A stretch of DNA of 64,000 nt from assembly GCA_046262615.1 (NCBI GenBank), contig JBHEML010000004.1, forward strand, positions 5,596 to 69,595. The letters run 5' to 3'. Below, one piece after another: positions 25,543 through 46,703 of this stretch. Origin of the DNA: Candidatus Limnocylindria bacterium. Lineage in GTDB: Bacteria; Chloroflexota; Limnocylindria; P2-11E. Each line of letters begins with the position of its first letter. Position 1 is the stretch's first letter. Under the pieces are notes generated by a model. That model ran no database searches. It saw nothing but the letters and a program-made list of their open reading frames with translations, and had not been told where the DNA came from. The translations under genes were made by a program, and so were the position numbers.

Positions 25543-25568
25543 CACTACACTTTGGCCCCATGTCCCTT

Positions 25569-25639
25569 TGGGGCGTGGCCAAGTGGTAAGGCAGCGGACT
25601 TTGGATCCGCTATCCCAGGTTCGAATCCTGGCGCCCCAG
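25569..25639 (+). tRNA. tRNA-Gln (anticodon UUG)
   Basis: Hand-folded cloverleaf: acceptor UGGGGCG/CGCCCCA (U1-A72), anticodon stem GCGGA/UCCGC, loop CUUUGGA, T-arm CCAGG-UUCGAAU-CCUGG, G73. CCA not encoded. Confidence 0.9.
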
Positions 25640-25667
25640 CCCGCCCGCTGATCTCCGCCCTCCCCCG

Positions 25668-43726: not shown

Positions 43727-43758
43727 TCAGCGACCATAGGCCCGGCCTGCTGCCCTTC

Positions 43759-44281: not shown

Positions 44282-45178
44282 TCAGAGGATGATCGGTGGG
44301 CTGAAGGCGATGAACCGGTCGAATCGCCCGAACGGTGAGCTCGACATCAGGACGTTCACCCAGGGATCGATGCGAAAGCGACGGCCGAGCAGGTGCCGGA
44401 CGGCCACGGAGTTGGGCGCCGGAACCTCGAGCTCGAGCCGGTCGAGACCCATGCTCGCGGCGCGACTCTCTACATGCAGCAGGATCTGGGGCAGGTCATT
44501 CGGATCCAGCGCCGCGACGGGACCCGCGCCCGCCCGGCCCACGAAGGCAAAACCGATCGCGGCGCCGTCGCGCAGGTAGAGGTGACCCTCGCGCCCGGAC
44601 AGGAGCCACTGGATCTCGTCTTCTCCGCGTTCGAAGCCGATCACGGCGCGCTCGATGTTCCCGATCGCCGAGATGTGCGCGGCGTCGCCGGCGATCTCGG
44701 TGGACCGCAGGTCACCGGGATCCGTGCGCGCGGGAGCACCGCCCATCGTGAGGATCGGGAAGCGCGCCACGGTGTCGGATCCGTAGTACAGCGCGAGCGC
44801 CCGGACGTCGGTCGTCGCGATGATGACCCGCACCTCACCGCGCCGGAGTGGAAAGGCGCGCTCGAGCAGCGTGCGGCCGACCCCACCCGACTGCAGTCCG
44901 GGACGGACGAAGAACTCGGTCAGCTCGAACAGGCCGCCGCGCTCGACCGAGCGCGCGAAACCGATGAGCTCCCGCGTGTCGCGCTCCTGGGCGACCCACC
45001 ACTCGGCGGCGTGTTCCGCCAGACGCTGGTAGAGCGCCTGGAACGAACGCCACGCCTCATCCGCGCTCACCGGCACGGGCGTCCCGCGGCGCTGGCCGAG
45101 GTCCAGCACCGCCTCCCACAGGAGGTCGTGGCAGGCTCTGGTGTCGTCCGGCGTTCCCCGGCGGAGCACGGCACCCAT
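44282..45178 (-). CDS. GNAT-family N-acetyltransferase (two-domain)
   Basis: ATG 45178 with GGAGG RBS. ...VRPGLQSGGVGRTLLERA (acetyl-CoA loop Q/RxxGxG). The track start at 45316 would overlap the upstream gene. Confidence 0.75.
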   Translation of the reverse strand: MGAVLRRGTPDDTRACHDLLWEAVLDLGQRRGTPVPVSADEAWRSFQALYQRLAEHAAEWWVAQERDTRELIGFARSVERGGLFELTEFFVRPGLQSGGVGRTLLERAFPLRRGEVRVIIATTDVRALALYYGSDTVARFPILTMGGAPARTDPGDLRSTEIAGDAAHISAIGNIERAVIGFERGEDEIQWLLSGREGHLYLRDGAAIGFAFVGRAGAGPVAALDPNDLPQILLHVESRAASMGLDRLELEVPAPNSVAVRHLLGRRFRIDPWVNVLMSSSPFGRFDRFIAFSPPIIL

Positions 45179-45201
45179 GCCCGCCTCCGGAGTGTCGGGA
45201 A

Positions 45202-45525
45202 CTAGCCGACCGACGCCGCGTGCTCCAGCCAGTAGACGGCCGCGAACAGCAAAGCCGCGGCGGCGCCCTGGGCCGCCAGCACCGTCAGCGTCAGCCGCGG
45301 CGCCTGCGGGAGCCATCTCACGGCGAAATACGCCATGACCACGAGCTGCACCGGCATGAGCAGCTGGAAGAGATGCGCCTCCGTCCCTTCATCGGGCTCG
45401 ATGGCGGTCCCGTGCAGGATGACGTGGCGCACGAAGAGAACGACCAGGAGGGCCGATATCGTCAGCGGAAGCCAGGCGCTCCACTCCGCGAGCGGGGACG
45501 ACCGTCCCGGCATCGCCTTCTCCAT
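45202..45525 (-). CDS. small membrane protein, function unknown
   Basis: MEKAMPG... followed by three hydrophobic helices. High GC3. Confidence 0.5.
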   Translation of the reverse strand: MEKAMPGRSSPLAEWSAWLPLTISALLVVLFVRHVILHGTAIEPDEGTEAHLFQLLMPVQLVVMAYFAVRWLPQAPRLTLTVLAAQGAAAALLFAAVYWLEHAASVG

Positions 45526-45769
45526 CGCTCGAGATGCTATGCGGAGCACACCGTCACGCTCACGGTGGGGGCGGGATCGCGGCTGCCGCAAATGGACGCG
45601 TACAGCGATATGTCGCGCGCTTCTTCGGCTCGCACGATCTTCGGTTCCATGAACGCTCCGTTCGCGGCCGCGGTCGGACTCGTGACAGTAGAATGGCCGC
45701 TCGGAGCGGACACTCGGAGCGGCACGACGGTCGTGCGGAGAGAGCAGGTGAGGTAAGCTCCGCTAACGT

Positions 45770-46043
45770 TCCTCGGTAGCTCAGCGGTAGAGCAGGCGGC
45801 TGTCGATGGCAGCCCTCTGGGGAAACCCAGGGGTGTAACTGGGTGAATTGACGGGAACCCTAAAGCGCGCAAGCGCCATGGCGATCCGCAGCCAAGCCCG
45901 GAGAAACGCTCCGGGAAGGTTCAGAGACTATGCGCCCGGCACCTAAGACCGCACGGGTGATGGTGAAGAGATAGTCCGTGCCCGGGGGAAATCCCGGGGT
46001 TCATGTAACCGCTTGGTCGGAGGTTCGAATCCTCCCCGAGGAG
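45770..46043 (+). tRNA. tRNA-Asn (anticodon GUU) interrupted by a group I intron. Exons are 45770-45803 and 46006-46043.
   Basis: Joined exons give a perfect 72-nt cloverleaf: acceptor UCCUCGG/CCGAGGA, D-arm GCUC-AGCGGUA-GAGC, anticodon stem GGCGG/CCGCU, loop CU-GUU-AA, T-arm GGAGG-UUCGAAU-CCUCC, discriminator G73. CCA not encoded. Confidence 0.9.
45804..46005 (+). ncRNA. group I intron (small IC3/Azoarcus-like, ORF-less, 202 nt)
   Basis: 5' exon ends in U paired to G (P1 GGCUGU 45798-803 / GCAGCC 45809-14). Last intron nt is G (46005). P2-P9 can all be drawn. Core CAGAGACUA (45922-30) pairs with UAGUC (45972-76). Confidence 0.88.
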
Positions 46044-46046
46044 CAC

Positions 46047-46078
46047 GATCGGCACGCACGGGCGTGCCGATCACTTTC
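46047..46078 (+). terminator. hairpin after tRNA-Asn (candidate intrinsic terminator)
   Basis: Perfect 11-bp stem GATCGGCACGC/GCGTGCCGATC with 4-nt loop (46047-46072), followed by ACTTTCG. The U-tract is short. Confidence 0.4.
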
Positions 46079-46085
46079 GATGTGA

Positions 46086-46703
46086 ATGAATGACCTGAGC
46101 GCCGCCGAGATGCGCCTTCTCCGGCAGATGCGCACTCCGGAGCGGGTCCAGGAGTACCTCGACGGGCTGACCTACAACGTCGAGACGCATGGCGAGACGC
46201 TGCGGTCGCCGCGCCGCGTCATGCGCGATCGCACGGCGCACTGCGCGGAGGGTGCATTCCTCGCGGCGGCCGCGTTCCGCGTGCACGGCAGGTCTCCGCT
46301 GCTGGTCGATCTCGAGTCGATCCGTGACGACGACCACGTGCTGGCCGTCTTCCGCGAACGGGGCAAATGGGGCGCGGTCGCGACCTCGAAGTTCGCCGGT
46401 CTTCGCTACCGTGCTCCCGTCTACCGCACCTTGCGCGAGCTGGTGATGTCGTACTTCGAGCAGTACTACAACTGGGACGGCGAGCGGACGCTTCGCGCCT
46501 ACTCGCGAGCGGTCTCGCTCGCGCGTTTCGACCGCATCGGCTGGATGACCGCCGAGGACGACCTCTGGCCGATCGTCGAGCACCTCGAACGCATCCCGCA
46601 CATCCCGTTGATGGACGGCGCCAGCGCGCGGCGCCTGCCTCGCCTCGATGCGCGTTCGTACCGCTCGGGCCTGGTGGGTGCGCCCCGAGCAGGACACCAC
46701 TGA
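46086..46703 (+). CDS. hypothetical protein, possibly transglutaminase-like/papain-fold (Cys...His pattern)
   Basis: TAHCAEGAFLAAAAFRVHG...DDDHVLAVFRERGKWGAVATS resembles the Cys and His/Asp segments of transglutaminase-like folds. Pattern-level inference only. Confidence 0.55.
   Translation: MNDLSAAEMRLLRQMRTPERVQEYLDGLTYNVETHGETLRSPRRVMRDRTAHCAEGAFLAAAAFRVHGRSPLLVDLESIRDDDHVLAVFRERGKWGAVATSKFAGLRYRAPVYRTLRELVMSYFEQYYNWDGERTLRAYSRAVSLARFDRIGWMTAEDDLWPIVEHLERIPHIPLMDGASARRLPRLDARSYRSGLVGAPRAGHH

Follow-up and report, generated by a model that had tools for sequence, protein, structure and literature searches.

Two tRNA-like segments that lie 202 nt apart on the plus strand of the 64-kb stretch analysed here (the window) raise the question of whether they are halves of one gene and, if so, what separates them and how a mature tRNA could come of it. 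An earlier note on this DNA had read them as a tRNA-Asn(GUU) gene interrupted by a group I intron. We consider it very probable that the locus is indeed a tRNA-Asn(GUU) gene, split between U35 and U36 by a compact, Azoarcus-like (IC3-type) group I intron of the Asn.4Ug class that carries no ORF. As far as sequence can show, the locus has the defining features of group I introns, of the Asn.4Ug class and of the compact IC3 type.

The 5' exon (45770-45803, 34 nt, UCCUCGGUAGCUCAGCGGUAGAGCAGGCGGCUGU) contains the 5' strand of the acceptor stem, the D arm, the 5' strand of the anticodon stem and C32, U33, G34 and U35. The 3' exon (46006-46043, 38 nt, UAACCGCUUGGUCGGAGGUUCGAAUCCUCCCCGAGGAG), delimited by sequence reading and ARAGORN, supplies U36, A37 and A38, the 3' strand of the anticodon stem, the variable loop, the T arm, the 3' strand of the acceptor stem and the discriminator G46043. 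Joined as the earlier note had proposed, the two segments fold as a cloverleaf of 72 nt, identified by ARAGORN as tRNA-Asn(gtt). The stems are those that had been claimed, of 7 bp (acceptor), 4 bp (D), 5 bp (anticodon, one pair being G.U) and 5 bp (T), with a TTCGAAT T-loop, a CUGUUAA anticodon loop and a discriminator G. The spliced sequence thus combines a cloverleaf with anticodon GUU, U33, a purine at 37 and G73, as found in bacterial tRNA-Asn, and its UCC...GGAG ends, described earlier as typical of this tRNA, match those of intact genes. One of these, the intact tRNA-Asn of a syntenic locus (L125), scores 71.9 bits with the Rfam tRNA model and is identical to the spliced tRNA at 60/72 positions. 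CCA is not encoded at the 3' end of the split gene.

Beginning 4 nt past the discriminator, an 11-bp GC-rich perfect hairpin with an ACGG loop (46047-46072, plus strand; dG -22.8 kcal/mol, z = -3.6) is followed by ACUUUCG, and the same sequence occurs in the nearest relative (L082). From its sequence, this hairpin is probably a terminator or a 3' processing signal of the pre-tRNA. A scan of 45400-46300 found no sigma-70 consensus promoter; a TAGAAT box near 45697-45702, noticed by eye, is conserved in L082.

The 202 nt between the exons (45804-46005, plus strand, 62% GC) contain no ORF of more than 32 amino acids. A search with the Rfam group I intron model (RF00028), the check that the earlier note had put forward, returned a match to the full model (positions 1-253) at 45794-45998 on the plus strand, with 70.2 bits (E = 8.8e-16) against a gathering score of 50 bits. 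It is the sole group I match in the 64-kb window. The insertion point, CUGU/UAA, lies between anticodon positions U35 and U36. A structure model was drawn from the Rfam alignment, the seed alignment of Williams (bioRxiv 2020) and direct reading; all 64 of its 64 pairs are standard in the window intron, and the RNAfold centroid, computed without the model being supplied, recovers P2, P3, P5a, P6a, P8 and P9.

All the helices described here are on the plus strand. P1 (45798-45814) pairs GGCUGU at 45798-45803 with the internal guide GCAGCC at 45809-45814 across a 5-nt loop, CGAUG, and places the U45803.G45809 wobble at the 5' splice site, in agreement with the 6-bp P1 and the guide 5 nt downstream of the exon-end U read earlier. 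The splice-site U.G pair occurs in 33/33 relatives and the four inner pairs, CUGU/GCAG, are unvarying in 32-33 of the 33; these inner pairs are held constant by the Asn anticodon loop. P2 (45815-45832) is a 7-bp stem (45815-21/45826-32) capped by a GAAA tetraloop (45822-45825), with compensatory changes at 7/7 pairs and 93% of cells paired in the family alignment. The 5' strand of P3, CUGGGUG (45839-45845), pairs with CGCCCGG (45933-45939), with double changes at three pairs and 87% of cells paired. P4 (45849-45855/45885-45890, with a bulged A45851; 96.5% of cells paired and swaps between G-C and C-G at two pairs) encloses P5 (45859-60/45880-81) and P5a (45865-68/45873-76, GCAA loop). P6 (45892-93/45918-19) is extended by P6a (45897-45903/45909-45915), where compensatory changes occur at 7/7 pairs in the family and at two pairs in comparison with the intron of locus L047.

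The 5' strand of P7 (45924-45930), consisting of G45924, the bulged A45925 and GACUA (45926-45930), was placed by the Rfam alignment and is unvarying in 33/33 relatives; its 3' strand is UAGUCC (45972-45977). As had been noticed from the letters alone, the conserved core string CAGAGACUA (45922-45930) pairs here with UAGUC (45972-45976). P7, presumed to be the guanosine-binding helix, forms a pseudoknot with P3 in the modelled structure. P8 (45940-45965) comprises an outer stem (45940-43/45962-65) and an inner stem P8a (45948-50/45956-58), with 95.5% of cells paired and three covarying pairs. P9.0 (45978-80/46002-04; 74% of cells paired) is followed by P9 (45981-87/45992-98, GAAA loop at 45988-91; 7/7 pairs covarying, 92% of cells paired), and the intron ends, as claimed, in a G, the terminal omega-G at 46005. 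The internal loop of P5 (CCUAAAG/CAUGG) and a motif in P8 (CCUAAG/GAUGG) are near the canonical 11-nt tetraloop receptor, of which neither helix holds an exact copy, and by analogy with the Azoarcus intron they resemble tetraloop receptors. A search for P10 gave nothing convincing: the sole candidate pairs are U46006.G45808 and A46007-U45807, and no P10 is claimed because the positions matching these two vary in the family. The modelled intron thus holds only P1-P9, P5a, P6a and P8a, in a tRNA anticodon loop and with no P2.1 or P5abc extensions, as in the compact core of subgroup IC3.

Covariation in a MAFFT alignment of 33 shorter family members, scored on the 64-pair structure, points to a ribozyme fold that is conserved and covarying. 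Standard pairs occupy 86.7% of cells, against 69% with shuffled columns and 35-46% with slid partners. Covariation scores 0.466 as opposed to 0.08-0.13, and none of 500 shuffles attains the observed figures. Double, compensatory changes are present in P2, P3, P4, P6a, P8 and P9. The invariance of P7 and of G/UAA in the family is partly imposed, because the pattern used to find its members contained the P7 3' strand and G/UAA.

That pattern (P7 3' strand, G/UAA and T arm), scanned over species-representative genomes, returned at least 119 loci, to which ARAGORN exon boundaries combined with a U at -1 and a G at omega were applied as splice rule. At least 111 resolve to a tRNA-Asn(GUU) split at CUGU/UAA, as in the window. 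The other eight drew no call from ARAGORN in intron mode; several of these matches are near a locus or contig end, and an incomplete 5' exon is the likely explanation. The U at -1 and the omega-G occur in all 111 relatives listed, the G before TAA having been demanded by the search pattern. Among the matches listed, hosts are labelled as Patescibacteria/CPR lineages, Nitrospirota, Acidobacteriota, Elusimicrobia, Cyanobacteria, Clostridia, Proteobacteria, Planctomycetes, Methylomirabilota/Rokubacteria, Binatia, Chloroflexota and others. Two Asn.4Ug introns stand on short contigs labelled Woesearchaeota archaeon (L059) and Klebsiella pneumoniae MAG (L106); these contigs are probably mis-binned, and similar mis-binning of a Pacearchaeota MAG was suspected in the preprint of Williams.

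Intron lengths among the matches listed fall into two classes, of 179-361 nt (n=91, the window's included) and 519-610 nt (n=21). In the long class, at least 16 of the 21 introns listed carry a conserved ORF in the P1 loop (L002, L007, L008, L014, L018, L019, L020, L037, L060, L076, L077, L084, L088, L089, L103 and L119). This ORF encodes about 100-170 amino acids, starts 1-68 nt past the 5' splice site, overlaps the internal guide and P2 with its 3' end and has the motif CxxCGY...HH...CxNCHxExH. Searched singly against Pfam and PDB, the ORFs gave only sub-threshold HNH matches, and a profile search did modestly better. Ten of the 12 aligned ORFs have a sub-threshold match to Pfam HNH (best E 2.6e-4); in PDB, McrA and the endonuclease domain from a group II intron maturase match best. 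By these sequence likenesses, the Asn.4Ug family probably encodes its homing endonuclease in this HNH-like ORF. Among the matches listed it occurs in the 519-610-nt relatives only, whereas the window intron has none, and the latter is not autonomously mobile because it lacks an endonuclease ORF. One locus considered as a syntenic endonuclease-bearing allele (L108) was rejected as an unrelated 49%-GC contig with only the tRNA in common; its tRNA exons are identical to the intact L125 tRNA at 70/72 positions.

Group I introns also split tRNA genes in four viral contigs (L200-L203) from IMG/VR, of 51-543 kb. The interrupted gene is tRNA-Asn(GUU) in L200 and L201 and tRNA-Lys(UUU), at CUUU/UAA, in L202 and L203, with Rfam group I scores of 76.6 bits for L200 (1948-2178) and 84.8 bits for L202 (8262-8474). 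In L200 the split tRNA-Asn lies within an array of 35 tRNAs that also includes an intact tRNA-Asn at 2787-2861. According to a 2014 review, all phage group I introns then known lay in protein-coding genes.

The combination of intron and tRNA seen in the window is already catalogued in a preprint. Williams (bioRxiv 2020) enlarged the list of tRNA intron settings from the four classical ones (Leu.3Ug, Arg.5Ug, fMet.2Ug and Ile2.5Ug, all IC3) to 21, and the seed alignment of that work includes Pam37.Asn.4Ug, whose tRNA and insertion point are those of the window intron. With a split after the fourth nucleotide of the anticodon loop, a U at -1 and a G at omega, the window intron is, going by that source, a further Asn.4Ug case. 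Our literature search returned no peer-reviewed account of a group I intron in tRNA-Asn; the 2014 review gives general categories of group I introns only, and the 22-49-nt 'group I introns' of a 2017 cyanobacterial paper were set aside as too short for ribozymes. Besides the tRNA-Asn GUU host, the CUGU/UAA insertion, the U at -1 and the omega-G, the window intron has in common with the Pam37 seed sequence the core strings GUGAAUU, CAGAGACUA, GCGCCC and GAGAUAGUCC. The two differ in length (206 nt against 276 nt, counted from the CUGU/UGU exon end to the omega-G), and the window intron has none of the extra hairpins of Pam37, which stand in the P2-P3 interval and past the 5' strand of P7. About 50% of the columns of their alignment are identical, the window intron being GC-rich (62%).

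A close structural counterpart is the self-splicing IC3 intron of the Azoarcus sp. BH72 tRNA-Ile(CAU) gene (PMC13168695), for which crystal and cryo-EM structures exist. The two introns are of similar length (202 nt in the window, 205 nt in Azoarcus), both interrupt the anticodon loop, and 141/229 columns of their alignment are identical. The helix order P1-P2-P3-P4-P5-P6-P7-P3'-P8-P7'-P9 is common to both, as are GAAA loops on P2 and P9 and CCUAAG-type motifs in P5 and P8. The Azoarcus intron (Ile2.5Ug) is inserted after loop nucleotide 5, whereas that of the window follows nucleotide 4 of a different tRNA, and the internal guides are unlike because the tRNA and the insertion position differ. 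The window receptor motifs also depart from the canonical CCUAAG/UAUGG, and a bulged A interrupts the P4 of the window intron. Of the two, the Azoarcus intron is the one with demonstrated self-splicing. The Leu.3Ug introns of cyanobacterial and plastid tRNA-Leu(UAA) and the fMet.2Ug and Arg.5Ug introns are likewise group I IC3 elements in the anticodon loop with U-1 and omega-G, but they occupy other tRNAs and positions, and the Synechocystis fMet intron encodes its own endonuclease ORF, unlike the window intron.

Close relatives place the split gene in a conserved neighbourhood. The nearest is L082, a 2.9-kb contig from a MAG with the label Gemmatimonadales, which shows synteny with the window and an identity of 90-97%. 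The two do not differ at any of the 72 exon positions; their introns are 97% identical, with 3.5% divergence, and the adjacent sequence diverges by 5-6%. This pattern fits a working tRNA gene as far as sequence comparison goes, and by itself the pair gives little evidence of selection because the intron is not clearly more conserved than its neighbours. Of the seven substitutions in the L082 intron, one (A45811 to C) disrupts a P1 pair still present in the window. The L082 guide, GCCGCC, loses the U-3:A pair, and would match perfectly the exon sequence GGCGGC three nt upstream. An assembly error may explain the change, the coverage given in the contig name being 6x, or this copy may have a weakened or shifted P1. 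The two neighbourhoods also differ by larger segments. About 850 bp of the window (44353-45201, against position 1324 of L082), spanning most of a GNAT acetyltransferase ORF on the minus strand (44282-45316), are absent from L082, and about 770 bp of L082 (1919-2693, against 43735-43755 in the window) are absent from the window.

A metagenome scan with the protein encoded downstream of the split gene (46086-46703) recovered 80 syntenic loci. The closest downstream protein (79%) is that of L133, which has an Asn.4Ug intron 78% identical to the window's (Rfam 88.4 bits). In L133 about 2.3 kb (503-2825) lie between the split tRNA-Asn and the downstream homologous gene, against 43 nt in the window, and these extra 2.3 kb may be an insertion adjoining the tRNA gene. 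The gene order of L125 is that of the window, namely a sigma factor, the tRNA-Asn, the homologous gene, a membrane protein and a GlcD-like oxidase, and its tRNA-Asn is intact and directly upstream of the homologous gene. An intact tRNA-Asn stands at the syntenic locus in L120, L129, L162 and L164 as well. The window site is therefore the orthologous position of a working gene, and, as the intron is found in the nearest relatives (L082 and L133) and not in more distant ones, it represents a presence/absence polymorphism at one tRNA-Asn locus. A relative with no other similarity to the window is L047, from a MAG labelled Limnocylindria (Chloroflexota), whose intron is the second-closest among the matches listed: positions 560-835, aligned with 45767-46045 of the window, are 83% identical over the intron and 63/72 over the exons. 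Of the 12 pairs changed between the two introns, six are compensatory, four still pair and two are broken. Either transfer between phyla or an incorrect bin label could account for the likeness.

Three other explanations of the locus have to be weighed. Standard gene finders, as the earlier note had warned, do miss this gene: in the whole window ARAGORN in default mode reports only a tRNA-Gln (25568-25642), and neither this mode nor the Rfam tRNA model reports the split gene. According to its authors (PMC8450103), tRNAscan-SE 2.0 is not designed for group I intron detection either; the remark on standard finders is correct. The intron-detection run of ARAGORN that had also been suggested was only half successful. 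It found both halves, but set a 204-nt intron after position 29 and called the gene tRNA-Tyr(gta). The locus could on that output be a tRNA-Tyr(GUA) interrupted elsewhere in the anticodon arm, but in this placement the 5' splice site lacks a U.G pair and the intron a terminal G, the anticodon stem is left with 4 bp, and the program behind it applies no group I rules. The Rfam alignment instead sets P1 at GGCUGU/GCAGCC, with an unvarying guide segment GCAG complementary to CUGU, and intact tRNA-Asn genes, that of L125 among them, agree with the split gene in the tRNA body as well as in the UCC...GGAG ends. Run on the 111 split tRNA-Asn genes among the matches listed, the intron mode called 80 Asn, 21 Thr, nine Asp and one His, thus mistyping 31/111 because its splice point is chosen without group I rules. 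A tRNA-Tyr identity is accordingly exceedingly improbable. The chance that tRNA halves and intron were joined chimerically during assembly is equally slight. Nothing specific speaks for it beyond the fact that metagenome-derived sequence is always open to chimeras, and the same arrangement recurs with its flanks in the independently assembled L082 and L133, and the same architecture in 111 other genomes among the matches listed.

A more substantial alternative is that the intron no longer splices, so that the split gene is a pseudogene and an intact tRNA-Asn elsewhere serves the cell. A second tRNA-Asn could lie outside the 64-kb window, and on viral contig L200 a split and an intact copy do stand side by side; the P1 pair broken in L082 and an intron divergence near that of the flanks would also suit a decayed relic. 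Against this, the window copy has 64 modelled pairs that are standard throughout, an intact cloverleaf and exons that are the same as those of L082, and its changes relative to L047 are mostly compensatory. It is moreover syntenic with the intact tRNA-Asn of relatives, and ARAGORN found no second tRNA-Asn within the 64 kb. We regard decay as very unlikely, and retain the reading of a tRNA-Asn gene split by an Asn.4Ug group I intron.

Under this reading, transcription of the split gene would give a precursor of about 275 nt, whose intron is predicted to fold into P1-P9 with the P3/P7 pseudoknot. The guide GCAGCC would pair with the last six nucleotides of exon 1, C32-U35 included, and present U45803.G45809. 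Free guanosine held in P7 would then attack after U45803, G46005 would next occupy the guanosine pocket in P7, and the 3'-OH of exon 1 would attack after G46005, joining CUGU to UAA in the mature tRNA-Asn. By analogy with Azoarcus, docking of the GAAA loops, L2 to P8 and L9 to P5, could provide tertiary clamps. This pathway is modelled on the established group I mechanism, as summarised in the preprint of Williams (bioRxiv 2020), and on the Azoarcus pre-tRNA (PMC13168695). We infer from these models the catalysis, the tetraloop docking (by analogy) and the dependence of the cell on splicing.

In practical terms the finding corrects an annotation and adds a single data point on how introns are gained and lost. 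A genome like the source of the window would seem to have no tRNA-Asn, or would gain a spurious tRNA-Tyr, because default finders miss the locus and the intron mode of ARAGORN errs. The comparative set shows how widespread the under-annotated Asn.4Ug class is and brings no new mechanism, while a single syntenic locus, with alleles in intact, split and split-plus-insertion form, offers material for the study of intron gain and loss. Asn.4Ug may be a moving, cross-phylum and phage-borne element, driven by the HNH endonuclease of the P1 loop, of which the window copy may be a domesticated, ORF-less descendant; this is the weaker version of a stronger reading, in which the split gene is the organism's only tRNA-Asn and the guanosine- and Mg2+-dependent rate of splicing gates translation physiologically, rather than the intron being merely a tolerated selfish element. 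The stronger reading is very unlikely in our estimation. Given the synteny with intact orthologues and the 64 kb with no other tRNA-Asn, it is plausible that splicing is essential if the split gene is the only Asn tRNA, and were that so, every Asn codon of this organism would depend on ribozyme catalysis.
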